Below are positions 6,117 through 45,932 of a DNA stretch of 64,000 bases, in pieces. How positions within the stretch are numbered: position 1 is the stretch's first letter; each line of letters opens with the position of its first letter. Below the pieces are notes generated by a model, which had not been told where the DNA came from, made no database searches, and worked only from the letters and a program-made list of their open reading frames with translations. This DNA is from Thermoanaerobaculia bacterium (GTDB taxonomy: Bacteria; Acidobacteriota; Thermoanaerobaculia; UBA5066), in the NCBI GenBank assembly GCA_036504335.1, contig DASXVJ010000017.1, positions 17,179 to 81,178 of the forward strand. The letters run 5' to 3'. Both the position numbers and the translations under genes were made by a program.

Positions 6117-6148
6117 TGTATCGGGGGCGGCGGGTAGACTCCGCGGCC

Positions 6149-6586: not shown

Positions 6587-6620
6587 CGGCGACGCCGAAA
6601 TCTGCGATCCTCCGCGGCCC

Positions 6621-8255: not shown

Positions 8256-8262
8256 TCCGCGG

Positions 8263-10059
8263 ATGCCCAAGGCGCGTTTCGCGGCCGCCCTCGCGGTCCT
8301 GGCCTGCGTCGCCCTCGCCGGCGCCGAGCGGGCGCGCTTCGGCCTCTGGACGACGTCCGACGAGCCCCCGCACCTCGCGGCCGCACGCGAGTGGCGGTAC
8401 GGCCCCGGGATGGTCTCGAACTTCGAGCACCCCGTCCTCATGAAGGTGATCGCGGGCAGCACGCTCCCCGCGGCAAAACCCGAGCTCGAGATCGACGAGA
8501 CCCGCGCCGGTCGGGCGGCGATTCCGTTCGTCCTCGCGCTCCTCGTCGTCGCGACCGGTCTTCTCGGCCGGGCCCTGGCCGGACCGGCGGCCGGCCTCGC
8601 GGCCGCCGCGGTCCTCGGGGTCGAGCCGACGTTCCGGGGCCACGGCACGCTCGTCCAGAGCGACGTCCTTCTGACGCTCTTCCTCGTCGCGGCTGCATTC
8701 GCGCTCGCGAAGGGCGCGAACGGCGATCGGCGCTGGCTCGCCGCGAGCGGCGTCCTCTACGGCCTCGCGATGGCGTCGAAGTACTCGGCATTCCCATTCC
8801 TTCTCGTATTCGCTGCCGTCGCAGTTCTTCGGCTCGGAACGAAGAGCACCGGAAGATTTTCTTTGAAGGGTAAGAGGGGCCCGGACCAGCGCCCGCCCGC
8901 ACGACGCCGCGCCTCGGAGCGGGCAGCCGGCGCACGCCGCGAGCCGCTCTCTTCACCTTCAAAGAGATCTCTTCTCTTTTCTTCCGTCTCCCGGGTCCTC
9001 GTCTTCATCGTCCTCCCCGCGCTCGCGACGCTCGCGCTCGTCCAGCTCCTCGCGTACGCGGGCACCACGGACGCCGCGTTCCGCCAGGGCCTCCGCGCAG
9101 CGTTCGAGGGGCTGCCGCAGGAGGGCGCGGTCGTGGCCCTCGCAAAGAAGTTTCCGAAGTGGATTGCGGGCTACGGCGCCGGCCTTCTCTTCGTGCAGGG
9201 GGTCGCGGGGCCCGGCGAGCGCTTCAACTACTTCTTCGGCCTCGTGCGCGGGACGGGATCGCTTCTCTACTTCCCGGTCGCGCTCGGAATCAAGCTCACG
9301 GCGGCGGCCGTCCTCGCGTCCCTCGCCGCCGTTGCCTTTGCCGTCGCGGGCTTCTTTCGCGGCCCGGTCCTTCGCCGTCTGCTCACGGCGCGGGCGGCGC
9401 TGCCCGCGGCGCTCGGAGGCGCCTACCTTCTCGCCGCGTGCGTCTCGAACGTGAACATCGGCGTCCGCCACGCTCTGCCCGCCGTGCCGTTGCTCCTCGT
9501 CGCCGCGGCCGCCGCCGGACGCGCACTTCTCGCGACGCGTCACCGGACGTTCCGCGCCCTCGCCGCCGCCGTCGTGCTCCTCGCCGCCGCGGAGTCGGCC
9601 CTCCGCCTCGGGCGCGAGATCTCCTTCGGCAACGTCCTCGTGGGGGGGCCGGCCGGCGTGCCGCCGATCCTCTCCGATTCGAACGTCGACTGGGGCCAGG
9701 AGCAGGGCCTCGTCTTCGAACGCGTGAAGCGCGGAGACCTCGGCAGGGTGGCGATCGCGGCCCTCCTCGTCGACGAGACGGGAGCGACGCGCGCCGGAGT
9801 CCTGGGCCTCGCGCTGAGGGCGGACGCTGGCGCCGACACGATCTTCTTCTCGCGCTTCCTCTGGGACCTCGCCGCGGCGATCGAGAAGAACGGCGACATG
9901 TATTCGAAATTCGTCTGGTTGCGCGGCTGGCTTCCGCCGCTGCGGCGCGGGCTCGAGGCGCGCGCGACGTCGGTCACGCCGTTCGGCGACGCCTACCTTC
10001 TCCTGCGCCTCAGGCCGGCTACGGCCGCCCCGTCGTCAGCGCCCGGCTCCATTCCGTGA
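8263..10059 (+). CDS. GT-C fold membrane glycosyltransferase (ArnT/PMT-like), with in-frame insertion of element copy B.
   Basis: Multi-TM protein with the LAMASKYSAFPF motif; residues ...LGTKSTGRFSLKGKRGPDQRPPARRRASERAAGARREPLSSPSKRSLLFSSVSRVL... are encoded by the AT-richer palindromic element at nt 8838-8997. Confidence 0.65.
   Translation: MPKARFAAALAVLACVALAGAERARFGLWTTSDEPPHLAAAREWRYGPGMVSNFEHPVLMKVIAGSTLPAAKPELEIDETRAGRAAIPFVLALLVVATGLLGRALAGPAAGLAAAAVLGVEPTFRGHGTLVQSDVLLTLFLVAAAFALAKGANGDRRWLAASGVLYGLAMASKYSAFPFLLVFAAVAVLRLGTKSTGRFSLKGKRGPDQRPPARRRASERAAGARREPLSSPSKRSLLFSSVSRVLVFIVLPALATLALVQLLAYAGTTDAAFRQGLRAAFEGLPQEGAVVALAKKFPKWIAGYGAGLLFVQGVAGPGERFNYFFGLVRGTGSLLYFPVALGIKLTAAAVLASLAAVAFAVAGFFRGPVLRRLLTARAALPAALGGAYLLAACVSNVNIGVRHALPAVPLLLVAAAAAGRALLATRHRTFRALAAAVVLLAAAESALRLGREISFGNVLVGGPAGVPPILSDSNVDWGQEQGLVFERVKRGDLGRVAIAALLVDETGATRAGVLGLALRADAGADTIFFSRFLWDLAAAIEKNGDMYSKFVWLRGWLPPLRRGLEARATSVTPFGDAYLLLRLRPATAAPSSAPGSIP
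8838..8997. repeat. Palindromic MITE-like element, copy B (in frame within GT-C gene 8263..10059).
   Basis: TIR-L ATTTTCTTTGAAGGGTAAGAGGGGC, GC-rich core, TIR-R GCCGCTCTCTTCACCTTCAAAGAGATC, then polypyrimidine tail tcttctcttttcttcc. Confidence 0.8.
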
Positions 10060-29711: not shown

Positions 29712-31084
29712 TTAGACGTACCACTCCGCGCGGCGCCGCCGCGGCCCTGTTCCTCGTTCTTTTCAGTCTTTTCTCCTTCCCCTCCCCCGCGTTCGCGGAT
29801 GAGACGCCGAAGGCGTCCGACCCGGCCGCGGAAAAGCGGCTGAAGGACCTCGAGCAGAAGCTCGACGTCGTCACGAAGGAGATCGAGGCGCTGCGTCTCG
29901 GTGAGTCGCCCTCGGCGGCTCCGCCGGCGGCGGCCGCCGCACCCGCGGCCGCCACGCCCGAGGCGACGGTCGCGCGCTTCGGCCTCGGGCCCGCCGCCGC
30001 GCGCGTCTATGCGAAGCGGGGCGTCTCGATCGGCGGGTATGGCGAGGTGCTCTATCAGGGCTTCTCGTCGTCGAAGCAGGACGGGACGGCCTCCGGCCTG
30101 ACGAACACGATCGACCTCTCGCGCGCCGTCTTCTACTTCGGCTACAAGTTCGACGACCACTTCGTCTTCAACTCGGAGGTCGAGTACGAACACGCGGTCG
30201 CCGCATCGGACAAACAGGGCGAGGTCGAGATCGAGTTCGCATACGTGGACTGGCTGAGCGCCTCGAAGGCGTTCCGCGCGCGCGCGGGCCTCATCCTCGT
30301 CCCGATGGGCTTCCTGAACGAGCTCCACGAACCGCCGACGTTCCTCGGCGCGCGCCGGAACGACGTCGAGACGCTCATCCTGCCCACGACGTGGCGCGAG
30401 CTCGGCCTCGGCGGATACGGTGAAGCCGGCCCGCTCGCGTACCGCCTCTTCTTCGTGAACGGACTGAACTCCGAGGGCTACACGGCCGAGGGAATTCGGG
30501 AGGGCCGTCAGGAAGGATCGCTCGCCAAGGCGCGCGACTTCGCCCTCACGGGCCGCCTCGACTTCGTCGGGATGAACGGCCTCGTCGCCGGCGCGTCGTT
30601 CTTCACGGGGTGTTCGGGGCAGGGCCGGCCGACGGCCTCGGGCGAGGCCGTTTGCGGGCGGACGACCGTGTGGGACGTCCACGCCGACTTCCGTTGGCGC
30701 GGCCTGTCGCTGCGCGCACTCGTCGCCGGCTCGACGATCTCCGACGCGGCCGCGCTCAGCGAGCTCAACGGCCTCTCGGGCGACGAGGGGATCGGCAGCC
30801 GCCAGCGCGGCTGGTACGCAGAGGCCGGGTTCGACGTCCTGACGCTCGTGCCGCGCACGAAGCTTTCGCTCACGCCCTTCGTCCGCTACGAGGAGTGGGA
30901 CACGCAGGCGTCGGTGCCGGACGGGTTCACCCGCAACCCGGAGAACGACGCGAGCCAGTGGACGGCCGGCGTCGTCTTCAAGCCCATCCCGCAGGTCGTG
31001 GTGAAGGTCGACGGACAATGGCGGAAGAACGCCGCGTCGACGGGCGTCAACCAGCTCAACGTCGCACTGGGGTATGAGTTTTGA
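29708..31084 (+). CDS. Outer-membrane beta-barrel porin-like protein (OprO/P-like) with an N-terminal coiled coil.
   Basis: Signal peptide ...LFLVLFSLFSFPSPAFA-DE; coiled coil AEKRLKDLEQKLDVVTKEIEALRL; alternating amphipathic beta strands; C-terminal ...LGYEF (terminal Phe); GTGA overlap with apbE. Confidence 0.6.
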   Translation: MIRRTTPRGAAAALFLVLFSLFSFPSPAFADETPKASDPAAEKRLKDLEQKLDVVTKEIEALRLGESPSAAPPAAAAAPAAATPEATVARFGLGPAAARVYAKRGVSIGGYGEVLYQGFSSSKQDGTASGLTNTIDLSRAVFYFGYKFDDHFVFNSEVEYEHAVAASDKQGEVEIEFAYVDWLSASKAFRARAGLILVPMGFLNELHEPPTFLGARRNDVETLILPTTWRELGLGGYGEAGPLAYRLFFVNGLNSEGYTAEGIREGRQEGSLAKARDFALTGRLDFVGMNGLVAGASFFTGCSGQGRPTASGEAVCGRTTVWDVHADFRWRGLSLRALVAGSTISDAAALSELNGLSGDEGIGSRQRGWYAEAGFDVLTLVPRTKLSLTPFVRYEEWDTQASVPDGFTRNPENDASQWTAGVVFKPIPQVVVKVDGQWRKNAASTGVNQLNVALGYEF

Positions 31085-31734
31085 GAAGCGAAGACGAAGA
31101 GAAGAAAGACGAGTTTCTTGGAAAGGAAGAGGGGCGTGGCCATAGCCTCGCGAGGCGAGCGCCGACGGCGCGCCTCCGCCCTTTCCCTCTTACCTTCAAA
31201 GAAATCTCTCTCTCTTTTCTCTTCGTAATCTTGCTCTCGTACCCGGTCCTCGCGAAGAGCTTCCTCACGCAGGAGGAAGCTCTTCGCCTCGCGTTTCCGA
31301 AGGGCGCGGTCGTGACGCGGAAGACGGCGTTCCTGTCCGAGGCGGACCGCGCGGAGGTCGCGCGCCGCTCGGGCGGCGCGCCGCCGCCCGGTCTCGTCGC
31401 GTACTACACCGCGACGCTGGACGGAAGGGACGCCGGGATGGCTTACTTCGACACGCACGTCGTCCGCACGCTCCCCGAGACGATCCTCGTCGCCGTCGAC
31501 CCGAAGGGCGCGATCACCCGGATCGAGGTCCTGTCCTTCTCCGAGCCGGAGGAGTACCTGCCGCGCGGGGCGTGGTACGGCCAGTTTCCCGGAAGATCGC
31601 TCGGCGACGAGCTCTCCGAGAAGAAGGGAATCCGCGCCGTGACGGGCGCCACGATCACGGTGCGCGTCACGGTCGAGGCGGCGCGCCGCGTCCTCGCGCT
31701 GGACGCGTTTCTCAAGGAGAGACCCCGCCGATGA
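31081..31734 (+). CDS. FMN-binding domain protein (NosR/RnfG/NqrC-type, likely ApbE substrate). N-terminus is supplied by element copy G.
   Basis: GIRAVTGATITVRVTVEAARRVL FMN_bind motif with the flavinylatable Thr. The first ~45 codons (MRSEDEEKKDEFLGKEEG...PFPLTFKEISLSFLF) lie inside the palindromic element. The TTG start overlaps the porin stop (TTGA). Confidence 0.7.
   Translation: MRSEDEEKKDEFLGKEEGRGHSLARRAPTARLRPFPLTFKEISLSFLFVILLSYPVLAKSFLTQEEALRLAFPKGAVVTRKTAFLSEADRAEVARRSGGAPPPGLVAYYTATLDGRDAGMAYFDTHVVRTLPETILVAVDPKGAITRIEVLSFSEPEEYLPRGAWYGQFPGRSLGDELSEKKGIRAVTGATITVRVTVEAARRVLALDAFLKERPRR
31085..31235. repeat. Palindromic MITE-like element, copy G (forms the 5' end of the FMN-binding protein gene).
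   Basis: Head gaagacgaagagaagaaagacgag + TIR-L TTTCTTGGAAAGGAAGAGGGGCGTGGCC; TIR-R GCCCTTTCCCTCTTACCTTCAAAGAAATC + tail tctctctcttttctcttcg. This is the best-preserved copy. Confidence 0.85.
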
Positions 31735-32156
31735 AGCGCTGGGCCGTCGTCCTGAACCATCTCGCGTGCCTCCTGGTCGGCCTCTCCGGCGTCGCCTACG
31801 GCGTCATGAAGTACTTCCTGTCCGGCGCGGACCCGGATTCTCGAGTCGGCCACCCGTGGCAACAGCCCATGCTGAAGGTCCACGTCCTCACGGCGCCGTT
31901 CCTGATCTTCGCGCTCGGCCTCGTCTTCAGCGGCCACGCGCTCCAGCGCTTCAAGGGCGGCGAGGACCCGGGCCGCGCGAGCGGCGCGGGCCTCCTCGGC
32001 CTCGCGGCGCCGCTCGTCCTGACGGGCCCGCTCATCCAGGTTCTCACCGGCGATGCCGCGCGGCAGTGGACGGGCTGGGCCCACGCCGCGCTCGGAGTCG
32101 TCTACGTCCTCGCGTACGCCGCGCACCTCCTCAAGAAGCGCCCGGGGGGCGCATGA
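31731..32156 (+). CDS. 4-TM His-rich membrane protein (DUF4405-like), putative b-type heme/electron-transfer subunit.
   Basis: Four hydrophobic helices with conserved His residues (HLACLL, VHVLTAPF, GHAL, AHLLKK); ATGA overlaps with both flanking genes. Confidence 0.5.
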   Translation: MKRWAVVLNHLACLLVGLSGVAYGVMKYFLSGADPDSRVGHPWQQPMLKVHVLTAPFLIFALGLVFSGHALQRFKGGEDPGRASGAGLLGLAAPLVLTGPLIQVLTGDAARQWTGWAHAALGVVYVLAYAAHLLKKRPGGA

Positions 32157-32395
32157 GCGCGCGACCTCACCCGGTCGCGGACGCGACGGCCGCTCCGCCG
32201 ATGACGGGGTGCGCCTGCACGGGGCGCTCGTTCGCCGAGGTTGAGCGACGCATGCACGGCGACCGTCTCCTGACGCTCGAGGCCGAGAGACTCACGGGGT
32301 GCGGCTCCCTCTGCACCGCGTGTCTCCCCGACCTTCGCGCATACTTGGTCCGGAAAACCGATCCGAGCCCCAAACAAGAATGGAGCGAATCATGA
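32153..32395 (+). CDS. bfd: Bacterioferritin-associated ferredoxin ([2Fe-2S] Bfd-like).
   Basis: CACTGRSF...TGCGSLCTAC matches the Bfd C-x-C...C-x2-C cluster pattern; 80 aa; immediately upstream of bfr. Confidence 0.7.
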   Translation: MSARPHPVADATAAPPMTGCACTGRSFAEVERRMHGDRLLTLEAERLTGCGSLCTACLPDLRAYLVRKTDPSPKQEWSES

Positions 32396-32862
32396 AAGGC
32401 GATCCCAAGGTCATCGAAATCCTCAACGACGTTCTCTGCGCCGAGCTCACGGCGGTCAACCAGTACTTCATCCACGGGATGATGTGCGGGAACTGGCGCT
32501 ATCAGACGCTCGCCAAGCACGGGCGCGACGAGTCCATCGACGAGATGAAGCACGCACAGAAGCTGATCGAGAGGATCCTCTACCTCGACGGCGTCCCGAA
32601 CATGCAGAAGTACATGAAGATCAACGTCGGCCAGACCGTCCCGGAGCAGCACGCCTTCGACCTCGACGTCGAGCGCGCGGCCGTCGCCCGGCTGAACGCC
32701 GGCCTCGAGGTCTGCCGGACCGCCGGCGACAACGGCTCACGCATGCTCCTCGAGGAGATCCTGAAAGAGGAGGAGGGGCACGTCGACTGGCTCGAGGCCC
32801 AGCTCCAGCAGATCGCCGACGTCGGCCTCCCGAACTACCTCGCGTTGCAGGCGGAGGATTAG
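32392..32862 (+). CDS. bfr: Bacterioferritin.
   Basis: MKGDPKVIEILNDVLCAELTAVNQYFIHGMMCGNWRY...; ferroxidase-centre Glu/His and heme-ligand Met conserved; GGAG SD 7 nt upstream. Confidence 0.9.
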   Translation: MKGDPKVIEILNDVLCAELTAVNQYFIHGMMCGNWRYQTLAKHGRDESIDEMKHAQKLIERILYLDGVPNMQKYMKINVGQTVPEQHAFDLDVERAAVARLNAGLEVCRTAGDNGSRMLLEEILKEEEGHVDWLEAQLQQIADVGLPNYLALQAED

Positions 32863-32894
32863 GCCGCCCGCGCCCGCCGGGCCGCTCTCCTTCC

Positions 32895-33881
32895 CTACTC
32901 TCCGGCCGTCTTCTTCTGCGCGAGGGCGGTCATGCCCGAGAGCCCGCCGAGGCCCATCGTCTCGACGGCGCTGGACGGCACGATGACCATCGAGCCCTTC
33001 TCCTTGATCGCCTCGTAGAGCATGTTCATCGCGCGCAGGTGCAGGGCGAGCGGGTGGTCCTTGTAGGCGTCCCCGGCCTCGACGAAGCGGGCCGAGATCT
33101 CGGTTTCCGCCGTGCCGAGGATGATGCGGGCCTGGCGCTCGCGCTCGGCCTGCGCCTGGCGGGACATCGCGTCCTCGAGATCGGCGGGGATCCGCACGTC
33201 GCGGATCTCGACGGACTGGACCGTGATCCCCCACGGGTTCGTCTTTTCGTCGAGGATCGTCTGGAGCTGCTTTCCGAGCTGCTCGCGCTCCGTGATCATC
33301 TCGGCGAGCATGTGGCGGCCGATCGTCTCGCGGAGCGCCGTCTGGGCCGACAGCGCGATGGCATCGAGGTAGTCGGCGACCTCGAGGACGGCCTTTTGCG
33401 CGTCCCACACGGTCCAGAACACGATCGCGTCGACGTTCACCGGCACCGTGTCCTTCGTCAGGGCCGACTCGGCCGAGACGTCCGTCACGCGGACGCGCTG
33501 GTCCACGAGGTGCGAGACCTGGTCGACGATCGGGATCAGGACGAAGAGCCCGGGCCCCTTGAGGCCCTGGAACTTCCCGAAGCGCAGGACGACGGCGCGC
33601 TCCCACTGGTTCGCCACCTTGAGCGCGAACATGAGATACACGCCGACCAGGATTCCGCCGAGGACCGGCCACGGCGACTGCGTCTGGACGGTCGCACCGA
33701 CGCCCGCGAGAACGGCGAAGGCGAACGCGAGGATGCTCGGTCCGCTCACGTAGCGCCGGGCCTGCAGGTCCTGCTCGCTGCGCCGCTGCCGGCGCTCGGA
33801 CGGGGTCGTGCGCGGGATCAGGGCCGCGGCGCGCGCCTCCTGCACCTGTTCCGCGGCCCGCTTGATCATTCTCGTGAGCAT
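32895..33881 (-). CDS. SPFH/band-7 (stomatin/prohibitin-like) membrane protein.
   Basis: N-terminal TM followed by an SPFH core (VVLRFGKFQGLKGPGLFVLIPIVD...) and a coiled-coil C-terminus. Confidence 0.8.
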   Translation of the reverse strand: MLTRMIKRAAEQVQEARAAALIPRTTPSERRQRRSEQDLQARRYVSGPSILAFAFAVLAGVGATVQTQSPWPVLGGILVGVYLMFALKVANQWERAVVLRFGKFQGLKGPGLFVLIPIVDQVSHLVDQRVRVTDVSAESALTKDTVPVNVDAIVFWTVWDAQKAVLEVADYLDAIALSAQTALRETIGRHMLAEMITEREQLGKQLQTILDEKTNPWGITVQSVEIRDVRIPADLEDAMSRQAQAERERQARIILGTAETEISARFVEAGDAYKDHPLALHLRAMNMLYEAIKEKGSMVIVPSSAVETMGLGGLSGMTALAQKKTAGE

Positions 33882-34790: not shown

Positions 34791-34985
34791 GAAGAGAAGA
34801 ATTTCTTAGAGGGTAAGAGGGGCATGGAACCGAACGTTCAGAACTTGCCGCGGCGCGGCAACCGCCCCGCCGCCTCGAGCATCCCTCCAAAGCGCCGCCC
34901 CTTCGTGCGCGCCGCCGCGGCCGCAGCTCTTCTCCTCACCTTCAAAGAAATCTTCTTTCCCTCTTCTCTTTCTCTCGCGGCTCCT
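34782..34985. repeat. Palindromic MITE-like element, copy H (contains the sbp RBS, ATG and signal-peptide coding region).
   Basis: Head aaagagagagaagagaag + TIR-L AATTTCTTAGAGGGTAAGAGGGGC, immediately followed by the ATG of sbp; TIR-R CTCTTCTCCTCACCTTCAAAGAAATC + tail ttctttccctcttctctttctctc. Confidence 0.85.
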
Positions 34986-35933
34986 CAGACGACGACGCTC
35001 CTCAACGTCTCGTACGACCCCACGCGCGAGCTTTACGAGGAAATCAACGCCGCGTTCCGGAAGAAGTGGGAGCCCGCCCACGGGCCGCTGACGATCAACC
35101 AGTCGCACGGCGGCTCGGGCAAGCAGGCCCGCGCGGTCCTCGACGGGCTCGAGGCCGACGTCGTGACGCTCGCGCTCGCGGGCGACATCGACGCGATCGC
35201 CGAAAGAAGCCGCCTCCTCCCCGCGAACTGGCAGTCCCGCCTGCCGCAGAACAGCGCGCCCTACACGTCCACGATCGTCCTGGTCGTCCGCAAAGGGAAC
35301 CCGAAGAAGATCCGCGACTGGGACGACCTCGGAAAGCCCGGCGTCTCCGTGATCACCCCGAACCCGAAGACCTCGGGCGGCGCGCGCTGGAACCACCTTG
35401 CCGCCTGGGGCTGGGCGCTCCGCCGGCCCGGCGGCGGCGAAGGTTCCGCCCGCGACTACCTGACCCGCTTCTACAGGAACGTCCCGGTCCTCGACACCGG
35501 CGCGCGCGGTTCAACCGTGACCTTCGCGGAAAGAGGAATCGGCGACGTTCTCGTCGCGTGGGAGAACGAGGCGTTCCTCCTCACGAAGGAGATCGGGAAG
35601 GACAGGTTCGAGATCGTCGTCCCGTCGGTCTCGATCCTCGCCGAGCCGCCCGTCGCCGTCGTCGACCGGAACGCCGACAAGCGCGGCACGCGCGCGGCGG
35701 CGCAGGCGTACCTCGAGTTCCTCTATACGGACGAGGCGCAGGAGATCATCGCGAAGCACCACTACCGCCCGCGCTCCGCGGCCGTCCTCGCCCGCCACGC
35801 CGCGCAGTTTCCGAAGGTCTCGCTCGTCACGATCGACGAGGCTTTCGGCGGCTGGAAGAAGGCCCGGAAGGCTCATTTCGACGACGGCGGCGTCTTCGAC
35901 GTCGTGACGGCCGCAATGCAGGGAGCCCGGTGA
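34824..35933 (+). CDS. sbp: Sulfate/thiosulfate-binding periplasmic protein.
   Basis: [25 protein letters not shown]...[37 protein letters not shown]...[13 protein letters not shown] is near-identical in pattern to Sbp/CysP. The ATG and the whole signal peptide lie inside element copy H. Confidence 0.9.
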
Positions 35934-37602
35934 CGGCCGCGCGCCGGCACGGCGTCCTCCCGGGCTTCGCTCCGGCGCTCTCGATGGCGTCGCTCTACGT
36001 GGGCCTCGTCGTCGTCCTCCCGCTCGCCGCGCTCGCGCTCAAGGCCGCGAGCCTCTCGGGCGGGGACTTCCTGCGGATCGTCACGGCGCCGCGCGCCCTC
36101 GCCGCGTACCGGCTGAGCTTCGGCGCGGCACTCCTCGCGGCGCTTCTGAACGCCGTCTTCGGTCTCCTCGTCGCGTGGGTCCTCGCGCGCTACCGGTTCC
36201 GCGGGCGCGTGGTCCTCGACGCGTTCGTGGACCTTCCGTTCGCCCTTCCGACCGCCGTCGCGGGCCTCACGCTCACGGCGCTCTACTCGGGCCAGGGCTG
36301 GATCGGCCGGTTTCTCGAGCCGCTCGGCCTCGAGGTCGCGTTCGCGCCCGCCGGCGTCGTCCTCGCGCTGACGTTCGTCGGCCTGCCCTTCGTCGTGCGC
36401 GCCGTCCAGCCGGTCCTCGAGGACCTCGACCCCGAGCTCGAGGAGGCCGCCGGCGTCCTCGGAGCCTCGCGCCTGCAGGCGTTCCTTCGCGTCGTCTTCC
36501 CGAACCTCCTCCCGCCCCTCCTCACGGGGTTCACGCTCGCGTTCGCCCGCGCGCTCGGGGAATACGGGTCGATCGTCTTCATCTCGGGCAACCTCCCGAT
36601 GAAGACCGAGATCGCGCCGCTCCTCATCGTCACGAAGCTCGAGCAGTTCGACGAGGCCGGCGCCACGGCGATTGCGGTCGTCCTCCTCCTCGCGTCCTTC
36701 GCGCTCGTCTTCGCCGCGAACGCCCTTCAGCGCTGGACGCGCCGGCTCGCCGGCGCCTCGGCCATGGCCGCGAGCCGGGGGTTCCGCCCCGCGCCGACGC
36801 TCGCCGAGCGGCCCGCCATCCGCAGGGCGCTCGTCGGCGGCGCGCTCGCGTTTCTCGGTGTTTTCGTCTTCCTCCCGCTCGCGTCGGTCTTCGCGCAGGC
36901 CCTGCAGAAAGGCCCGGCGCCCTACCTCGCGGCGATCTCCGAGCCGAACGCGGTGGCCGCGATCCGGCTCACGCTCCTCACGGCCGCGCTCGTGGTGCCG
37001 TTCCACCTCGTCTTCGGCCTCGTGACCGCGTGGTGTGTCGCGAAGTTCCGGTTCCGGGGCAAGAGCCTCCTCGTCACGCTCGTCGACCTCCCGTTCGCGG
37101 TCTCTCCCGTGATCGGCGGCCTCGTCTTCGTCCTGCTCTTTGGCCGACGCGGGCTCCTCGGGCCGTTCCTCGCTCTCCACGACTGGAAGGTGATCTACGC
37201 CGTGCCGGGCATCGTCCTGGCGACCCTCTTCGTGACGTTCCCGTTCGTGACGCGCGAGGTCCTCGCCGTGATGGAAGCGCAGGGCAACGACGAGGAGGAG
37301 GCCGCGCTCACGCTCGGCGCGGGCGGCTGGCAGACGTTCTTCCGCGTGACGCTCCCGAAGGTGCGCTGGGGTCTCCTCTACGGCGTCGTCCTCTGCAACG
37401 CGCGCGCGATGGGAGAGTTCGGCGCCGTGTCGGTCGTCTCGGGCCATATCCGCGGGGTCACGAACACGATCCCGCTTCACGTCGAGATCCTCTACAACGA
37501 GTACGACATGACGGGCGCGTTCGCCGTCGCGTCTCTCCTGACGTTCCTCGCGCTCGTGACGCTCGCCGTCCGGAAGGTCGAGGAAGCCCGGGTGGCTGCG
37601 CG

Positions 37603-37606
<4 letters not shown>
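35930..37606 (+). CDS. cysTW: Fused sulfate ABC transporter permeases CysT-CysW (single 558-codon frame).
   Basis: The first half matches CysT (VLPGF...[15 protein letters not shown]...EAAGVLGAS). The second half matches CysW ([15 protein letters not shown]...[18 protein letters not shown]...[10 protein letters not shown]). No stop separates the two halves. GTGA overlap with sbp, ATGA overlap with cysA. Confidence 0.8.
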
Positions 37607-38325
<719 letters not shown>

Positions 38326-38363
38326 CCTCCCGTCCGGCCCGGGGACCGGTTAGGCTTCGCGCC

Positions 38364-41027
38364 ATGCCGCAACCCGGGCCGCTCGATCCGGAATCCCTCC
38401 GCCTCGAGGAGGACCGCTCCCGCAAGGCGAACTGGAAACGCTGGGGGCCGTACCTTTCCGACCGCCAGTGGGGCACGGTGCGCGAGGACTACGGCGCGGA
38501 CGGCCAGCCCTGGACGTACTTCCCGCACGATCACGCGCGCTCGCGCGCCTACCGCTGGGGCGAGGACGGCCTCGCGGGCTTCTCCGACCGCCACGGGCTG
38601 ATCTGCCTCGCGCCGGCGCTCTGGAACGGCCGGGATCCGATCCTCAAGGAGCGCCTCTTCGGCCTCTCCGGGCCCGAAGGCAATCACGGCGAGGATGCGA
38701 AGGAATACTGGTTCCACCTCGACGGGACGCCCACTCATTCGTACATGCGGATGCTCTACAAGTACCCGCAGGCCGAGTTCCCGTACCGCACGCTCGTCGA
38801 GGAGAGCGCGCGGCGGAGCCGCCTCGACCCCGAGTTCGAGCTCCTCGACTCCGGCGCGTTCGAGGGGAGCCGCTACTGGGACGTGTTCGTCACGTACGCG
38901 AAGGCGTCTCCCGGGGACCTCCTCGTGACGATCGAGGCCGTGAACCGCGGACCCGACACGGCGCCGCTCCACGTCCTGCCGACGATCTGGTTCCGCAACA
39001 CGTGGTCGTGGGGCCTCGACGCGCGCCTGCCCCGCCTCGCCGCCGCTGAACCTCCGGCCGGCGCCGCCGCGATCGCGGTCCACCACCCGTACTACGGCGA
39101 TCGGACGCTCTACATCGAGGGCGCCCCCGATCTCCTGTTCACGGACAACATCACGAACGCGCGGCGGCTTTTCGGGGCCGAGAACGAGGGCCGGTTCGTG
39201 AAGGACGCATTCCACGAGCGCGTCGTCCACGGCGCCGAGGACGCCGTGAACCCCGCGGGCTACGGGACGAAGGCGGCCGCATGGTTCCGTCTCGACGTCC
39301 CCGCCGGCGAGTCGCGCACGGTGCGGCTGCGCCTCACGGACCGCTCCCTCGCGGCGCCGTTCGGCGAGGAGTTCGGCCGGGTCCTCGCGGCGCGCCGGGA
39401 CGAGTCGGACGCCTTCTACGCCCGCGTGATTCCCCGCGGGCTTTCCGGCGACGCGAAGAACGTCATGCGGCAGTCGTTCGCCGGCATGCTCTGGTCCAAG
39501 CAGTACTACGGCTACGACGTCGCGCGCTGGCTCAGGGGCGACCCCGGCCAGCCGCCCCCTCCGGACGAACGCCTCCGCGGGCGGAACGCCGGCTGGCAGA
39601 ACCTCTTCAACGCGGACGTCCTCTCGATGCCGGACAAGTGGGAGTACCCGTGGTACGCGGCGTGGGACCTCGCGTTCCACGCGATCCCGCTCGCGCTCGT
39701 GGACCCGGAGTTCGCCAAGGGCCAGCTCGTCCTCCTCCTGCGCGAGTGGTACATGCACCCGAACGGCCAGCTCCCCGCGTACGAGTGGAAGTTCGAGGAC
39801 GTGAACCCGCCCGTCCACGCCTGGGCCGCGTGGCGCGTCTACAAGATCGACGCGAAGCGCTCCGGAAGGCCCGACCGCGAGTTCCTCGCGCGCGTCTTCC
39901 ACAAGCTGCTCCTGAACTTCACCTGGTGGGTAAACCGCAAGGATCAGGACGGGAACAACGTCTTCCAGGGCGGCTTTCTCGGGCTCGACAACATCGGTCT
40001 CTTCGACCGCAGCACGCCGCTCCCGTCCGGCGCCACGCTTCAGCAGTCCGACGCGACGAGCTGGATGGGGATGTACTGCCTGAACATGGGCACGATCGCC
40101 CTCGAGCTCGCGCGCGAGGACAAGGCCTACGAGGACATCGCCTCGAAGTTCTTCGAGCACTTCATGCACATCTCGAAGGCGTTGAACGCGCCGGAGCGCG
40201 GCACGGGGCTCTGGGACGAGACGGACGGCTTCTTCTACGACGTCCTCAGGCTTTCCGACGGCCACGGGATCCCGATGCGGATCCAGTCCATGGTCGGCCT
40301 CATTCCGCTCTTCGCGGTGGCGACGCTCGAGCCGTTCGTCCTCGAGGCGTTTCCCGGCTTCCGCCGAAGGATGCAGTGGTTCCTCGACCACGGCTCGGCG
40401 TACGGGGCCAAGGTCGAGACGCAGTCGACCGTCGTCGGGACCCGGCGCCTGTTGTCCCTCGTCGGGAGGGAGCGCCTCCGGCGCATCCTCGACCCGCTCC
40501 TCGACCCGGACCGCTTCCTGTCCGACCACGGGATCCGGTCGCTCTCCCGGGCGCACCGCGACCACCCCTTCGTCGTGCCGTGGGACGGCCGGGAGCTGCG
40601 CGTCGACTACGAGCCGGCCGAGTCGCGGACCAGGCTCTTCGGGGGCAACTCGAACTGGCGCGGCCCGGTGTGGTTTCCGGTGAACTTCCTCCTGATCGAG
40701 TCGCTCCAGAAGTTCCACCACTTCTTCGGAGACTCCTTCACGGTGGAGTTTCCGAAGGGCTCCGGACGCGAGCTCACGCTCTGGCAGGTCGCCGACGAGC
40801 TTTCCCGGCGCCTCACCGGGATCTTCCTCGCCGGCCCGGACGGCCGGCGGCCCGCGTACGGCGGGACCGGGGTCTTCCAGACGGACCCCCACTGGAAGGA
40901 CCTCCTCCTCTTCCACGAGTATTTCAACGGCGACGACGGGGCCGGGCTCGGCGCCTCCCACCAGACGGGCTGGACCGGCCTCGTGGCCAAGCTCCTCCAG
41001 CAGACCGGGGACGGCCGGGCGGAATAG
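38364..41027 (+). CDS. Large (alpha/alpha)6-barrel glycoside hydrolase (GH63/MOGS-like).
   Basis: 887 aa; motifs [30 protein letters not shown] and [17 protein letters not shown] characteristic of the bacterial GH63-like family. Start at ATG 38364; the upstream ORF extension is GC junk. Confidence 0.7.
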
Positions 41028-41158
41028 AGGGGCCCCTTCGCGTCATCCACCACTGCGCCGCGGGCCCTTGGCCTGAGACAGAGTCTTTGATCCAGTCGCA
41101 ATCTCACTTCCGTAGTGGTATGAAGACCCCCACCCATCGAGCGAAAAAAGGAGGCCCC

Positions 41159-41533
41159 ATGAATCGTCGCCAGTTCGCCGCCACCCTCGGTGCCGCCGTC
41201 GCCGGCCTCGTCGCCGGCAAAACCCTCCTCGCCGACGACAAGCCCGCCGACAAGCCCGCCAAGCACGCCTGCAAGGGCCTGAACGCGTGCAAGGGCCAGG
41301 GAGGCTGCGCCACGAAGGAAAACTCCTGCGCGGGCGCGAACGCGTGCAAGGGCAAGGGCGGCTGCGCCACCGCGGCCAAGCACGACTGCGCCGGCAAGAA
41401 CGAGTGCAAGGGCCAGGGCGGCTGCAAGTCGGGCGACAACAAGTGCGCCGGCAAGAACTCGTGCAAGGGCAAGGGCGGCTGCGCCAGCCCGATGAAGAAC
41501 GCGATGAAGAAGGACGCCCCCAAGGCGGGCTGA
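41159..41533 (+). CDS. Cys-rich secreted RiPP precursor (bufferin/HvfA-like, 12-Cys type) with a twin-arginine-like signal peptide.
   Basis: AGGAGG RBS 7 nt upstream. The N-terminus is MNRRQFAATLGAAVAGLVAG. The mature region has 12 Cys in four NxCKG(Q/K)GGC + CAG repeats and is Lys/Gly/Ala-rich. A DUF692 gene and a DUF2063 gene follow immediately downstream. Confidence 0.75.
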   Translation: MNRRQFAATLGAAVAGLVAGKTLLADDKPADKPAKHACKGLNACKGQGGCATKENSCAGANACKGKGGCATAAKHDCAGKNECKGQGGCKSGDNKCAGKNSCKGKGGCASPMKNAMKKDAPKAG

Positions 41534-41545
41534 TCCCGCACGTTC

Positions 41546-42412
41546 ATGGGTGACCGCTTCGGGCTGCCCGACCTCGGCGTGGGGGTCGGGCTCCGCACCG
41601 TCCACTTCGGGCACATCCTCTCGAAGAAGCCCGACGTGGACTTCTACGAGGCCCTCACCGAGAACTTCCTCGACACGGGCGGGCGCCCGCTCCACGTGCT
41701 CGACCGCGTGGCGGAGCGGACGCCCGTCGTGCTGCACGGCGTCTCGATGTCGATCGGCGGGACCGACCCCCTCGACTTCGACTACGTCCGGAAGGTCAAG
41801 GCGCTCGCGGACCGCACGAAGGCGCTCTGGGTCTCGGACCACCTCTGCTTCACGGGCGTCATGGGGCGCAACACGCACGACCTGCTGCCCCTCCCCTACA
41901 CGGAGGAGACCCTGAAGCACGTCACGCAGCGCGTGAAGACCGTCTCGGACGTCCTCGAGCGGCCGCTCGTCCTCGAGAACCCGTCGTCCTATGTCGAGTT
42001 CCGGGCCTCGACGATCCCGGAGTGGACGTTCTTCGACCGGCTGCTCCGCGCCGCCGATTGCGGGATGCTCCTCGACGTCAACAACGTCTACGTGAGCTCC
42101 GTGAACCACGGTTTCGATCCCATCGCGTATCTCGACGCCCTGCCGCACGACCGCGTCGTCCAGTACCACCTCGCCGGCCACACGGACAAGGGAGCGTACC
42201 TTCTCGACACGCACAGCGCGCGCGTGAAGGATGAGGTCTGGAGCCTCTTCCGCCACGCCAACGCTCTCACGGGACCGCGCGCGACGCTCCTCGAATGGGA
42301 CGAGGACATCCCGGACTTCGAGACCGTCCACGCCGAAGCGAAGAAGGCTCTCGCCCACAGGCCTCCCCTCGTCCGGGCCGACGCCCGCGTGCCGGCGGCC
42401 GTCCATGCCTGA
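41546..42412 (+). CDS. DUF692 multinuclear non-heme iron oxidase (MNIO; MbnB/HvfB/BufB/TglH family), TIM-barrel.
   Basis: VGVGLRTVHFGHIL..., LHGVSMSIGGTDPLDFDYVRKVKALADR..., VSDHLCF, LLENPSSY, EWDEDIP are the conserved DUF692 blocks; 288 aa. Confidence 0.85.
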   Translation: MGDRFGLPDLGVGVGLRTVHFGHILSKKPDVDFYEALTENFLDTGGRPLHVLDRVAERTPVVLHGVSMSIGGTDPLDFDYVRKVKALADRTKALWVSDHLCFTGVMGRNTHDLLPLPYTEETLKHVTQRVKTVSDVLERPLVLENPSSYVEFRASTIPEWTFFDRLLRAADCGMLLDVNNVYVSSVNHGFDPIAYLDALPHDRVVQYHLAGHTDKGAYLLDTHSARVKDEVWSLFRHANALTGPRATLLEWDEDIPDFETVHAEAKKALAHRPPLVRADARVPAAVHA

Positions 42413-43208
42413 CCTCCGCGCCCTCGAGCGCTGGATGCAGGCCTCGATCGTGCACCCCGGCACGATCCAGGAGGCGATCCGCAGCCGCGCCGCCACCCGG
42501 CACCTTCCGCTGCGCGAGGCCGAGCGTGCGATCCTGCCCTCGAGGACGATGGCGCCCCTCGAGCGCCTCGCCGTCTACCAGGGCATGTATCCGCTGCGGA
42601 TGCACGACGCGCTCGCGGCGGATTACCCCGGCCTCAGGGCCTTTCTCGGCGATCACCTCTTCGAGCACTTCGTGGCCGACTACGTCGCGGTCCACCCGTC
42701 GCGGAGCTACACGCTCAACCGGCTCGGCGACCACGTCCCCGACTTCGTGAAGACGTGGCATCACCCGAAGCGCGCCTTCCTCGCGGACCTCGCCCGTCTC
42801 GAGCTCGCCGTGACGGAGACGTTCGACGCGGAAGACGACGCCCCGCCCGCAGCCCCGCCCTCGCACGTCGACACCGACTGGGAGAGCCGCCGCTTCACGC
42901 TCGCGCCGACGCTGCGGCTCCTGTCCTTCCGCCACGCGGCCGGTCCCGCGCTCGACGCGCTCAAGGCGGGTCGGCGCGCCTCCGCACCCCCGAGGGCCTC
43001 CTGGGCCGCCGTCCACCGCCGGAGCTGGGTCGTCTACCGCCTGGACCTGACGCGCGGGGAGTTCCACGTGCTGACGGCCCTCGCCGCGGGCCAGCCGCTT
43101 GGCAAAGCGCTGCGCCTCGCCGCCCGCAAGGCTGGCAAGCCGCTCTCCCCCGCCGCCGTCCGCCGGGCGTTCCGCATCTGGACCTCGGAGGGGATCCTCC
43201 GGGCCTGA
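42405..43208 (+). CDS. DUF2063 protein (MbnC/HvfC/BufC-type partner of the MNIO).
   Basis: 267 aa; N-terminal domain with LERLAVYQGMYPLRMHDALAADYPGLRAFLGD typical of DUF2063; 8-nt overlap with the DUF692 gene. Confidence 0.75.
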   Translation: MPDLRALERWMQASIVHPGTIQEAIRSRAATRHLPLREAERAILPSRTMAPLERLAVYQGMYPLRMHDALAADYPGLRAFLGDHLFEHFVADYVAVHPSRSYTLNRLGDHVPDFVKTWHHPKRAFLADLARLELAVTETFDAEDDAPPAAPPSHVDTDWESRRFTLAPTLRLLSFRHAAGPALDALKAGRRASAPPRASWAAVHRRSWVVYRLDLTRGEFHVLTALAAGQPLGKALRLAARKAGKPLSPAAVRRAFRIWTSEGILRA

Positions 43209-43212
43209 AGGC

Positions 43213-43446
43213 TCAGGGCTTCGGCTTCGGCGGCGGAAGCTCGCGCGCCACGACCTCGGATTTGAATCCCGCGCGGGCGTGCGAGCCGTCGCAGAACGGC
43301 TTGTTCTCCGAGTGGCCGCAGCGGCAGAGCCCGATCGAGGCGCGGCCCGACAGCCCGAACGGCCGGCCGGCGGCGTCCTCGAGCGTGACGGGGCCGCTCA
43401 CGAGCAGCGAGCCGTCGTTGCGAACGGTGATCTTGACGTCGGTCAC
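43213..43446 (-). CDS. CDGSH-type iron-sulfur domain protein.
   Basis: CRCGHSENKPFCDGSH motif; 77 aa; GTG start; 11 nt downstream of the thioredoxin gene. Confidence 0.6.
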   Translation of the reverse strand: MTDVKITVRNDGSLLVSGPVTLEDAAGRPFGLSGRASIGLCRCGHSENKPFCDGSHARAGFKSEVVARELPPPKPKP

Positions 43447-43457
43447 GTGGCCTCCGA

Positions 43458-43958
43458 TCAGGTCCTTTTCTTCTTCTCGTCCTTCTCGGCCGTCAGGAAC
43501 CTCTGGCGCGCGCCCTTCAGGAACTCGATCGCCAGCGCCGGTCCGTCCCAGCCCTCCATCGTGACGCCCTTGCCGAATCCGGGGCGCGACACGACGAGAG
43601 TCGGAAAGCCGCGCAGCCCGTAGCGGTCCGCGAGCTTCAGCATCTCGGGCGCGTTCGTTCCCGTCTCGCGCGACACGTCCCGCACGATGACCGGGACGTA
43701 GTCCTTCGCGATCTGATCCGCGACAGCCTTCTGCGAGAAGACCTGCTGCTCGAGGAGATGGCAGGGGCCGCACCAGTCGGCCGTGAAGAAGTAGAGAACG
43801 AGCTTGCCCGCCTTCTTCGCCTCGGCCTCCCCCGCGACGATGGGGCGCCACTTGACGAGGTCCTGCGGATGCGCGCCGGCGGGCCCGGCCGTGAGGAGGC
43901 CGAGGACGGCGAAAATGAACGCGCCCAACGGGCGCCGGATATCGCGGGCACCAGACAT
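43458..43958 (-). CDS. Periplasmic thioredoxin-fold thiol:disulfide oxidoreductase.
   Basis: Signal peptide ...LGAFIFAVLGLLTAGPAGAHP; active site WCGPCH; ~140-aa thioredoxin fold. Confidence 0.75.
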   Translation of the reverse strand: MSGARDIRRPLGAFIFAVLGLLTAGPAGAHPQDLVKWRPIVAGEAEAKKAGKLVLYFFTADWCGPCHLLEQQVFSQKAVADQIAKDYVPVIVRDVSRETGTNAPEMLKLADRYGLRGFPTLVVSRPGFGKGVTMEGWDGPALAIEFLKGARQRFLTAEKDEKKKRT

Positions 43959-43967
43959 GCCCGGATG

Positions 43968-45932
43968 TTAGCGCGGCGGCGCAGCCGCGGCGCCCGCATC
44001 CGAGCCGTCCGAGATCTCGGAGCTGAGCTCCCGAAAGCTCCGCGGCCACTCGGACGGCGGCCGGCGCAGGGCGTCCTGCATCGCGCGCGTCCGGATCCCG
44101 CGGGCCGCTTCGGCGAGGAGACCCGCGGCGTACGCATCCTGGCCGCGATCGCGCGCGCGAAGCGCCTGGACGAGCACGACCGGAGGAGCCCGCCGGACGC
44201 GATCCGGAAGCTCGTCGGCAAATACGTGCGCGGTTTCGTCCTGTCCCGACAAGCGCAGGCCCTCGAGACGGACGGCGGCCATGTATCCCGACGGCAGCAG
44301 CGCGAAGAGCGTCTCGGCGATCCGCGCCGCCCGGTCCGGCCGGCCGATGTCGAGATTGCGGAGCGCCTGGTCCGCAAGGCCCGCGTACCAGGCCGGGTTG
44401 TACGTTCCGGGGCGCTCGCCGCGCGGGTGCGCGAAGCTCATGAAGAGGTGCGGCCAGCGGAACGGCGTCGTGAGGTAGTTCACGAGCGGCGTCCGCGTCG
44501 TGATCATCGGCGAGGGCGGCGGCAGGTCCGGTACGGCGTCCGGATGCGCCCCCAGCCAGGGCGGGCGCAGCAGCCTTTCGCGGCGCTCGTCGTCGCCGAG
44601 CTCCGCGAACCGGACCCCGAGGAGGAACGGGTGGACCCGGAACGCCGAGAACCCGGCGTCGGACGCCGCCGGAACGTACCGCCAGAGCCGGTACGTTCCG
44701 TTCTCCCCGCGCGGAGGGCGAAACGAAGCCGGGTACTCCGCGTACAGCTCGTGGGACACGCGGGCGAGTCCCGTCGACGACACGTAGAAGAACGAGGCCG
44801 CCTCGGATTCGAACGTCCCGAGCGCGTTGACGCCGATCCCGAGCGCGACGAGCGCCGTCCCGGCCGTGCGCCAGAGGCGCGAGGCCGCGGCCGTCCCCGC
44901 GACGGCGGCGAGAACCGGCACGAGCGGAACGAGGAAGCGCGGCCCCCATCCCCCGCTTCCGTCCCAGGCCCACCACCGGGCGTACACGGCGAGGAACGCC
45001 ACGCAGAGGGCGGCGACGGAGATCGTGGCCGCGCGCGTCGCCGCGGCGCGCGCGAGGGGCGCGAGGGCGACGAACGCGAGGACCGCGAGCGGGAAATAGA
45101 GGAGCAGCCCCTTGTTGGGGCCGACGAGAAGGCGCCATGCTCCGTCGAGGAACGGGTGCGCGAACTTCTGGTCGCCGTAGGACGAGAACGGCTTCCCGAA
45201 ACGCACGAACTCGAATGCGAGCATCGCGACGAGGGGCCCGGCGGCCCCCGCCGCCGCCGCGGCCACGAGCCGGAGCCGCGCGCGCGACGGCGGCCACGCG
45301 GCCGGGACGAGCGGCAGGAGCGCCAGCGGCGCGAACGCGAGGTTCACGGATTTCGTGAGGACGAGCCAGCCCGCGAAGAAGCCGGCGGCCGCGGCCCGCC
45401 GTGCGGCGGCTCCGTTCCCGACCTCGGCCGCCCGGACCGCGAACAGGACCGCGAAGACGAGACAGGCCGCCTGGAGCGGCTCGGAGAACCCGTACGCGGT
45501 GTAGGCCCACAGCGGCGATCCGAGGGCCGTCCCGAAGACGGCGAGCCCCTGGCCGAACGCGCCGGCGCCGAGCGCCGCGGCGAGCAGCCCGGCGCCCGCC
45601 GCGGCCGCCGTCACGAGGAGCACCTCGAGGAACACGAACAGGGTCTGCGAGGTGCGGGCCCCGAACGCCGCCTCCCAGGGCCGCGCCAGAGCGGCGAAGG
45701 GCGCCTCGACGAGCGGAAGGCCCATCCCGTAGGGAGCCACGGCGTCGCCCCCCGCCCGCGCGATGCTGAAGTGCTGGTTGCGGGAGATCCCGATCTCCCC
45801 CGCCGTCGCCATCGAGATCGCCGTGTAGAGCATCTGCTGCTCGTCGCTCACGGTCCCGAACGTCCGCTCCTCGGCCGTCGCGGCAAGCAGAAGGAACGCC
45901 GCCGCGACGCAGGCGGCGAGGCGGCGGCTCAC
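43968..45932 (-). CDS. GT-C fold membrane glycosyltransferase with C-terminal TPR-like region, paralog of 10019..11995.
   Basis: RFGKPFSSYGDQKFAHPFLDGAWRLLVGPNKGLLLYFPL and WAWDGSGGWGPRFLVPLVPVL align with the other two paralogs. Start at GTG 45932 overlaps the LOG-gene stop. Confidence 0.65.
   Translation of the reverse strand: MSRRLAACVAAAFLLLAATAEERTFGTVSDEQQMLYTAISMATAGEIGISRNQHFSIARAGGDAVAPYGMGLPLVEAPFAALARPWEAAFGARTSQTLFVFLEVLLVTAAAAGAGLLAAALGAGAFGQGLAVFGTALGSPLWAYTAYGFSEPLQAACLVFAVLFAVRAAEVGNGAAARRAAAAGFFAGWLVLTKSVNLAFAPLALLPLVPAAWPPSRARLRLVAAAAAGAAGPLVAMLAFEFVRFGKPFSSYGDQKFAHPFLDGAWRLLVGPNKGLLLYFPLAVLAFVALAPLARAAATRAATISVAALCVAFLAVYARWWAWDGSGGWGPRFLVPLVPVLAAVAGTAAASRLWRTAGTALVALGIGVNALGTFESEAASFFYVSSTGLARVSHELYAEYPASFRPPRGENGTYRLWRYVPAASDAGFSAFRVHPFLLGVRFAELGDDERRERLLRPPWLGAHPDAVPDLPPPSPMITTRTPLVNYLTTPFRWPHLFMSFAHPRGERPGTYNPAWYAGLADQALRNLDIGRPDRAARIAETLFALLPSGYMAAVRLEGLRLSGQDETAHVFADELPDRVRRAPPVVLVQALRARDRGQDAYAAGLLAEAARGIRTRAMQDALRRPPSEWPRSFRELSSEISDGSDAGAAAAPPR

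Follow-up and report, generated by a model that had tools for sequence, protein, structure and literature searches.

The 64,000-nucleotide stretch analyzed here (the window; positions 17,179 to 81,178 of contig DASXVJ010000017.1) belongs to the genome of an uncultured member of the Thermoanaerobaculia (Acidobacteriota), and it carries on its forward strand three tightly packed genes that we assign with high confidence to a bufA2-bufB2-bufC2 operon, that is, a bufferin 2 (Buf2, or BUF_6/12Cys) cluster of the "Cys-Lys" group in the proposed captophorin class. This confidence applies to the family, the chemistry, and the copper role taken jointly; gene content and order, profile matches, active-site residues, partner fold, duplication of the precursor, and conservation of its signal are drawn from the window and its relatives, and the remainder is carried over from the family. 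The precursor opens with a twin-arginine motif resembling those of the twin-arginine translocation (Tat) pathway; the motif is real, is conserved in much of the family, and has apparently not been discussed before.

The first gene encodes a precursor that begins MNRRQFAATLGAAVAGLVAGK and contains exactly 12 Cys (residues 38, 44, 50, 57, 63, 69, 77, 83, 89, 96, 102, and 108). An earlier note, made from the letters of this stretch, had described a 124-aa protein with 12 Cys and four N-x-C-K-G-(Q/K)-G-G-C repeats interleaved with CAG motifs; the length, the Cys count, and the four repeats are all borne out, and of the four interleaved Cys the first lies in C-K-G and the other three in C-A-G. The core is a clean tandem duplication of one 6-Cys unit: the two units align without gaps over 38 aa with a score of 160 (44 +/- 8.3 for shuffled sequences), and the Cys are spaced 6-6-7-6-6 in either unit. 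Across 62 aligned sequences, every Cys but Cys108 is invariant (11 of 12), and Cys108 itself is kept in at least 90%. The curated model NF050166 (Cu_RiPP_BufA2, "BufA2 family periplasmic bufferin-type metallophore") matches the precursor at 63.3 bits (cutoff 60) in two stretches that correspond to the two 6-Cys units; Pfam DUF7640 scores 25.5 bits, which is under its cutoff, and PF10048 (DUF2282) gives no match to the precursor at E <= 1.

The high-GC DNA of this region yields many long spurious open reading frames (ORFs) on both strands, including an antisense ORF at 41104-41616 that is also rich in G+C at third codon positions (GC3, 0.90), and one might therefore suspect that the precursor gene is a chance ORF, or that the cluster is a decaying remnant. 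Both readings are effectively refuted, and we give them next to no credence. Homologs of the precursor number 6,821 among 8,000 scored candidates (1,701 representatives at 50% clustering) and keep invariant Cys; the protein passes a curated hidden Markov model; a ribosome binding site (RBS) is present and the operon spacing is conserved; and the differences from 13 orthologs are biased to codon position 3 (333, as against 189 at position 1 and 156 at position 2). GC3 is 0.94 in the precursor gene, 0.94 in bufB, and 0.93 in bufC, and both bufB and bufC are intact with complete catalytic residues. The small gene is thus as real as the earlier note had supposed, and the antisense and alternative-frame ORFs across the operon were set aside as GC-rich artefacts. 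Among five variant proteins of the family (P0011, P0159, P0227, P0157, and P0220) there are forms with 18 or 25 Cys, and two of the five are 430-465 aa long, with a normal MDRREFTK... signal that leads into a stretch rich in Arg, perhaps because they are fusions or their gene calls are frameshifted.

The second gene encodes the modifying enzyme, BufB, a multinuclear non-heme iron oxidase (MNIO, formerly DUF692). It matches NF050167 (MNIO_BufB, "MNIO family bufferin maturase") at 346.6 bits (cutoff 310) and Pfam PF05114 (MbnB_TglH_ChrH) at 353.6 bits, and it falls under the cutoffs of HvfB (NF003818, 260.5 vs 360), MbnB (TIGR04159, 66.2 vs 325), ApyH, and ChrH. Residues were assigned by alignment to 3BWW, TglH (8HCI_D), and two MbnBs, using the ligand list of PMC9060507. 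All nine metal ligands are kept (H64, H99, E144, D177, N180, H208, D221, H223, and E250, corresponding in order to MbnB H54, H90, E133, D163, N166, H192, D208, H210, and E239), so that the His/Asp/Glu set, whose loss the earlier note had named as grounds for abandoning its proposal, is complete. D252 is the catalytic base, the counterpart of FonB Asp249.

The residue that follows, E253, occupies the substrate-specificity site and aligns to the Phe of 3BWW ("ERDF"), a Lys-Cys-type enzyme. Cys-Lys enzymes are reported to carry an Asp at this place, where it contacts the substrate Lys (PMC13097082); the Glu of the window enzyme is acidic but not Asp, which would fit a C-K substrate. The counterpart of Asp251 in Caulobacter BufB2 would be this Glu or the adjoining D254. 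Most other relatives in this BufB clade carry Ala, so that Glu253 can be read either way. Residues 250-254 (window 42293-42307) read EWDED in the clade of the window enzyme and EWDA[D/K/N/R/S] in most other relatives (across 80 loci, L007-L086), and the specificity site of MNIOs thus seems more variable than the literature describes.

The third gene product, BufC, is the MNIO partner. It matches PF09836 (DUF2063) at 59.3 bits (cutoff 27.2), and its AlphaFold2 model, built from 52 sequences, has a predicted local distance difference test (pLDDT) score of 87.4 and a predicted template-modeling score (pTM) of 0.80. Foldseek paired this model with TglI in the TglHI holoenzyme (8HI7_A; probability 1.00, TM 0.60) and with NGO1945 (3DEE), the founding DUF2063 structure (TM 0.68 normalized to the target), and its C-terminal sheet and helices weakly with the leader-binding RiPP recognition element (RRE) of TbiB1, where RiPP denotes a peptide made on the ribosome and modified after translation. 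The model thus presents BufC as an N-terminal helical DUF2063/HvfC_N domain followed by an RRE-like beta-sheet/helix domain, in agreement with the published description of DUF2063 plus RRE.

Taken together, the BufA2 and BufB models and the DUF2063 partner confirm the earlier proposal of a bufferin-type MNIO RiPP operon, including its assignment of the second gene to the MNIO family and of the third to DUF2063; of the profile searches it had suggested, those for DUF692, DUF2063, and BufA2 gave matches and that for DUF2282 did not. Its further suggestion of a distinct subfamily does not survive comparison with the literature. It had pointed to a repeat unlike the EGKCG and DUF2282 types and to the Tat-like signal, and had also listed the absence of DoxX (BufD); indeed no DoxX gene lies within +/-10 kb of the operon. 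The repeat and the missing DoxX are those of a known third group. The BUF_6/12Cys group was defined with Caulobacter BufA2 and a DoxX-less buf2ABC cluster (Leprevost et al., PMC11626156). About 90% of Buf2 precursors keep 6 conserved Cys, and the others have 12 through duplication of the 6-Cys domain (PMC12452194); Buf2 products are the "Cys-Lys" captophorins, with NACKG among the common captophorin 5-mers (PMC13097082). The operon is an ordinary member of the bufferin 2 family as already described. In public records the precursors are labeled "hypothetical protein" and BufC "DNA-binding domain-containing protein."

The closest described system is buf2ABC of Caulobacter vibrioides (CCNA_03001-02999), which shares with the window the precursor-MNIO-DUF2063 order, the absence of DoxX, a signal-bearing precursor with C-K-G and G-G-C motifs, membership in the NCBIfam models for BufA2 and BufB, and the expected 5-thiooxazoles on central Cys with a disulfide between the outer ones. 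It differs in having 6 Cys, where the window precursor has 12 (a duplicated unit, the minority form of roughly 10%), in its reported Sec signal as opposed to an RR-x-F n-region of twin-arginine type, in belonging to the Alphaproteobacteria rather than the Acidobacteriota, apparently in the residue after the catalytic Asp (Asp there, Glu in the window enzyme), and in its SigF/NrsF regulon context, for which no counterpart is known at the window. Bufferin 1 or DUF2282 clusters (buf1ABCD; the gig operons of Cupriavidus) have in common with the window the MNIO subfamily cluster, a DUF2063-RRE partner, a signal-bearing precursor, and a copper-binding thiooxazole product; however, their precursor is a 4-Cys DUF2282 protein, and they usually include DoxX and often sigma/anti-sigma genes.

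The "Lys-Cys" captophorins, namely oxazolin (HvfABC, Haemophilus influenzae), fontiphorin, and gonophorin, likewise combine an MNIO and a DUF2063-type partner with a repeat-rich Cys precursor and copper binding, and they include 3BWW, the closest solved enzyme structure to the window BufB. Their repeat is E-G-K-C-G, with Lys before Cys, whereas the window precursor has no EGKCG repeats, and their enzymes carry Phe, not Glu, after the catalytic Asp; FonBC, a Lys-Cys pair, fails to process an NACKG substrate (PMC13097082). The methanobactin system MbnABC shares the MNIO fold, the iron ligands, and a Cys-derived copper-binding heterocycle, but its precursor is of the short leader type with no signal peptide, its partner is MbnC rather than a DUF2063 protein, and it makes an oxazolone-thioamide in a secreted chalkophore. 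TglHI, of 3-thiaglutamate biosynthesis, resembles the window system in its partner chain (8HI7_A with the BufC model) and in its enzyme (TglH 8HCI_D with BufB); unlike the window system, it excises the beta-carbon of Cys from another substrate that lacks a signal peptide.

By analogy with these relatives, the precursor would be made in the cytoplasm, where BufB, kept on its substrate by BufC, would use O2 to oxidize particular core Cys by four electrons each to 5-thiooxazoles. Since BufB and BufC both lack a signal peptide, we place the modification in the cytoplasm, which is consistent with the literature. Caulobacter Buf2 retains its first and last Cys, probably as a disulfide, and has its four central ones modified, with a shift of -16 Da, or -18 with the disulfide (PMC11626156); each 5-thiooxazole accounts for -4.03 Da per Cys and absorbs at 305 nm (PMC11626156). 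If the same holds for each 6-Cys unit here, with the outer Cys unmodified and paired and the four central Cys modified, the window peptide would carry up to 8 thiooxazoles and 2 disulfides, a shift of about -36 Da. The N-terminal signal would take the peptide over the inner membrane, with cleavage probably after LLA25, and the mature peptide of about 99 aa would bind Cu(I)/Cu(II) present in excess in the periplasm. Induction by copper and protection against it have been reported for the family (PMC11626156, PMC12452194, PMC13097082). The chemistry, the choice of modified Cys, copper binding, and the periplasmic role are all proposed here by homology.

The export signal deserves closer attention. 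The precursor has a signal-like n/h/c architecture with an RR-x-F in the n-region, although Buf2 signals are described as Sec-type. The window motif, N-R-R-Q-F-A-A, sits at the n/h boundary like Tat motifs of the S/T-R-R-x-F-L-K type, with the RR pair conserved; at least 90% of the 62 aligned sequences keep Arg3 and Arg4, while the flanking residues vary. An RR-x-F beside the h-region occurs in 110 of the 120 closest homologs and in 64 of 145 analyzable representatives at 50% clustering (44%), in 6-Cys as well as 12-Cys precursors and with cleavage sites that are either signal peptidase I-like or lipoboxes; this RR-type fraction is dominant in the Acidobacteriota and Planctomycetota. Within the motif class, both R are invariant, F stands at +2 in 167 of 171 sequences (98%), and K/R at +4 in 109 of 171 (64%).

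All precursors in the clade of the window operon (L007-L018, from species-representative genomes) are RR-type with 12 Cys. A sister group of Thermoanaerobaculia begins "MNSRDLA..." and is without RR, and Planctomycetota precursors mostly read "...LNRRDFxKL...GCG." The N-terminus of one of the latter, from Bremerella cremea JCM 17758 (L075), passes the Tat model TIGR01409 at 22.7 bits (cutoff 16.7), and no Tat model matched the non-RR control N-termini. The family is bimodal, having either a canonical RRxF or no pair, which looks like a Tat/Sec split and is unlike a generic positive n-region. The RR signal was also considered as a marker of 12-Cys precursors and rejected, as it occurs in 6-Cys forms too. 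In ten Planctomycetota loci (L046, L049, L050, L059, L074-L077, L084, and L086) the "...LNRRDFxKL..." signal comes with a lipobox (GCG) and a precursor of 9-10 Cys, and these signals look like Tat-type lipoprotein signals.

From the invariant RR-x-F motif we lean, though not strongly, toward Tat rather than Sec for export of the window precursor; the wider proposition, that Tat exports a large share of Buf2 bufferins, this one among them, over a broad phylogenetic range, seems to us evenly balanced. A somewhat less probable but serious alternative is that the operon and its chemistry are as described and export is by Sec, with the twin arginines being no more than the positive n-region of a Sec signal. 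Several points tell for it and against Tat. Published work, including both bufferin survey papers, describes the family as Sec-dependent and never mentions Tat, and no paper or supplement within reach of a text search ties Tat to bufferins, MNIOs, or RiPP precursors (figures and publisher-only supplements lay outside that search). The window N-terminus matches neither TIGR01409 nor PF10518, and it scores weakly against TIGR02811 (14.4 bits, cutoff 48.45); the earlier note was thus right about a Tat-like motif, which is real and conserved in relatives, but the window signal itself fails the curated Tat profiles. Its +3/+4 residues (A, A) differ from the F-L-K consensus, and the annotated part of the window (1-52 kb) contains no Tat genes. 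RR and non-RR classes have homologous h-regions (AAVAGxxAG), no less hydrophobic in the former (Kyte-Doolittle 1.62 vs 1.40), the opposite of the usual trend; because the definition of the h-region is crude, hydrophobicity was not counted in support. Finally, the peptide is small, hydrophilic, and by prediction unstructured, and it is not obvious why it should need Tat. On the other side, Sec n-regions tolerate exchange of K and R, yet RR occupies the motif position 64 times and KK, RK, and KR together only 11 times. The conservation of F at +2 and of K/R at +4 extends across phyla, Arg3 and Arg4 stand out amid variable residues, the c-region contains a basic residue (Lys21) typical of Sec avoidance, and one family member does pass TIGR01409.

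Other observations weigh against the assignment of the operon as a whole. BufC lies far under the HvfC equivalog NF050145 (40.5 bits, cutoff 142), and the curated-model search matched no BufC-specific model; the BufA2 score of the precursor barely exceeds its cutoff, because the model spans one 6-Cys domain; and the AlphaFold2 model of the precursor (62 homologs) shows no confident fold (mean pLDDT 45.7), so that the published prediction of BufA2-type cores as small domains, here two, is unconfirmed by it. No copper-related, sigma, or anti-sigma factor genes, SigF and NrsF included, lie near the operon, and the neighbors look related to iron or redox chemistry: an Rrf2 regulator, an Fbp-like ATP-binding cassette (ABC) transporter, ferritin, and conserved genes for a CDGSH protein and a periplasmic thioredoxin-like protein. 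For this reason, copper specificity is argued here from homology. The same neighbors would suit a bufferin-like thiooxazole peptide with a role other than copper, in handling another thiophilic metal or in iron/redox homeostasis, and MerC-bufferin fusions do suggest other metals (PMC12452194). We nevertheless regard such a role as unlikely. The missing sigma and anti-sigma genes say little, because Buf2 clusters generally lack them (PMC12452194); the neighbors are on the opposite strand or beyond an unrelated glycosidase gene, and they are lost in more distant relatives; and every characterized member of the family binds copper (PMC11626156, PMC13097082). It is more improbable still that the products of BufB are oxazolone-thioamide pairs, the structure found in methanobactin and originally put forward for oxazolin/HvfA, in place of 5-thiooxazoles. 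The wording of the earlier note allowed either product, and the two are isomeric and hard to distinguish (PMC13097082); however, nuclear magnetic resonance and alkylation of bufferin 1, fontiphorin, and re-examined oxazolin back the 5-thiooxazole with DUF2063-type partners (PMC11626156, PMC13097082), and the window BufB falls very far below the MbnB cutoff. By analogy with enzymes and partners of this type, the thiooxazole half of the earlier wording would stand, as a 5-thiooxazole, and the oxazolone-thioamide half would fall.

The features of the copper-binding Buf2 operon proposed here and of its surroundings are collected in Table 1. All three ORFs are co-directional, as noted earlier, and the stated overlap of 8 nt between the second and third is confirmed; from the precursor stop to the bufB ATG there are 12 nt, not 13. 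The RBS-like AGGAGG is present, but it stands 4 nt from the ATG, and the distance of 7 nt given earlier is obtained only by counting inside the motif. An in-frame ATG at 41120 would give a protein of 137 aa with 13 extra residues (MKTPTHRAKKGGP, 41120-41158) and would put the AGGAGG inside the coding region. We take 41159 as the start, because homologs begin MNRRQF and the gene call of the Joint Genome Institute (JGI), made on the 224-kb metagenome contig Ga0376481_000108 that includes the window, is likewise 124 aa. In a scan of 40800-43700, sigma-70-like promoters were absent and the terminator-like sites numbered just two, both weak and no more than chance would give; an Rfam search of 40500-43800 at E <= 1 retrieved neither riboswitches nor leader RNAs. 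A protein at NCBI from a metagenome-assembled genome (MAG) of the Thermoanaerobaculia matches BufC at 100% identity, and BufB is 92-94% identical to several proteins from Thermoanaerobaculia/Acidobacteriota MAGs. The A-B-C order with tight spacing also occurs in Acidobacteriota, Planctomycetota, Verrucomicrobiota, and other relatives.

Table 1. Features of the proposed bufferin 2 operon and of adjacent genes, in positions of the window
Feature	Position	Strand	Remarks
MGH1-like glycosidase	38364-41027		Between the Fbp-like ABC transporter and bufA
Shine-Dalgarno-like AGGAGG	41149..41154	+	Read from sequence; CCCC (4 nt) between AGGAGG and the bufA2 ATG
bufA2 precursor ORF, including stop	41159-41533	+	124 aa; N-terminus MNRRQFAATLGAAVAGLVAG
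Signal peptide, aa 1-25 (cleavage predicted after LLA25)	41159..41233	+	n-region MNRRQF; Ala/Gly-rich h-region ATLGAAVAGLVAG; Lys21 in c-region
Core peptide, aa 26-124, plus stop	41234..41533	+	NF050166; 12 Cys
6-Cys unit 1, aa 34-71	41258..41371	+	AKHACKG...GGCAT; self-alignment with unit 2
6-Cys unit 2, aa 73-110	41375..41488	+	AKHDCAG...GGCAS; tandem duplicate of unit 1
bufB, MNIO (formerly DUF692)	41546-42412	+	288 aa; NF050167, PF05114
bufC, MNIO partner, DUF2063/HvfC_N plus RRE-like domain	42405-43208	+	267 aa; PF09836
CDGSH iron-sulfur protein	43213-43446	-	Convergent to bufC
Signal-bearing thioredoxin-like protein	43458-43958	-	Convergent to bufC
654-aa membrane protein	43968-45932	-	Convergent to bufC

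The trio of CDGSH, thioredoxin-like, and membrane protein genes follows bufC in every locus of the clade L007-L018 with enough flanking sequence and is not found in distant relatives. We considered the CDGSH and thioredoxin-like genes as members of the cluster and rejected them, as they are convergent, kept only in the clade of the window operon, and absent further out; the trio is treated as local synteny. Upstream, in the region 34824-41027 that also holds the glycosidase gene, the Fbp-like transporter comprises a substrate-binding protein, a 540-aa permease, and an ATPase, and Rrf2 and GntR regulators lie divergently upstream. Whether Rrf2, the transporter, and ferritin form a functional context for the operon can be read either way: the glycosidase gene intervenes here, yet in L003 (3347-6866) and L012 (82-2420) nothing separates bufA from the transporter's ATPase gene, and the two share a strand. 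Farther upstream of the Band_7, GntR, and Rrf2 genes, at about 30100-32900 of the window (L088 15591-19716), genes for ApbE, an unknown protein of 458 aa, FMN_bind, two small unknowns, and ferritin stand in a co-directional row, which may be a redox or iron-handling module. One relative, L006, has two MNIO clusters side by side (3047-9202). The first runs HbpS-like, MNIO, HvfC_N, and then a weak BufA1 (DUF2282) match, and it is unusual for the precursor to close a cluster; after about 1.5 kb come a Buf2 A-B-C cluster of Sec type and then a TonB-dependent receptor.

DoxX is unevenly spread among the relatives. In the 80 retrieved loci (L007-L086) it accompanies 4 of the 40 precursors of RR type and 11 of the 15 without RR, a skew between signal types that is confounded by clade, and the gene orders A-B-C, A-B-C-D, D-A-B-C, and A-B-D-C were all seen. 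A strict rule that RR means no DoxX was rejected on account of L017, where the gene directly upstream of a bufA of RR type is doxX.

A further bufferin cluster in itself adds little, as bufferins are among the largest RiPP groups known and both the precursor and the enzyme are already in curated models. The signal is another matter. The field regards bufferins as rare Sec-dependent RiPPs, and a functional RR-x-F would alter the order of events: export would take place only after heterocyclization and folding in the cytoplasm, possibly with metal already bound, and no earlier RiPP class would have been routed through Tat. An RR-to-KK change offers a simple handle, and there are hosts in culture, Bremerella cremea for one. 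If the Tat reading is true, it could also explain the scarcity of DoxX in RR-type clusters, and the uneven distribution of DoxX between signal types would be a first testable hint as to the role of DoxX (BufD).

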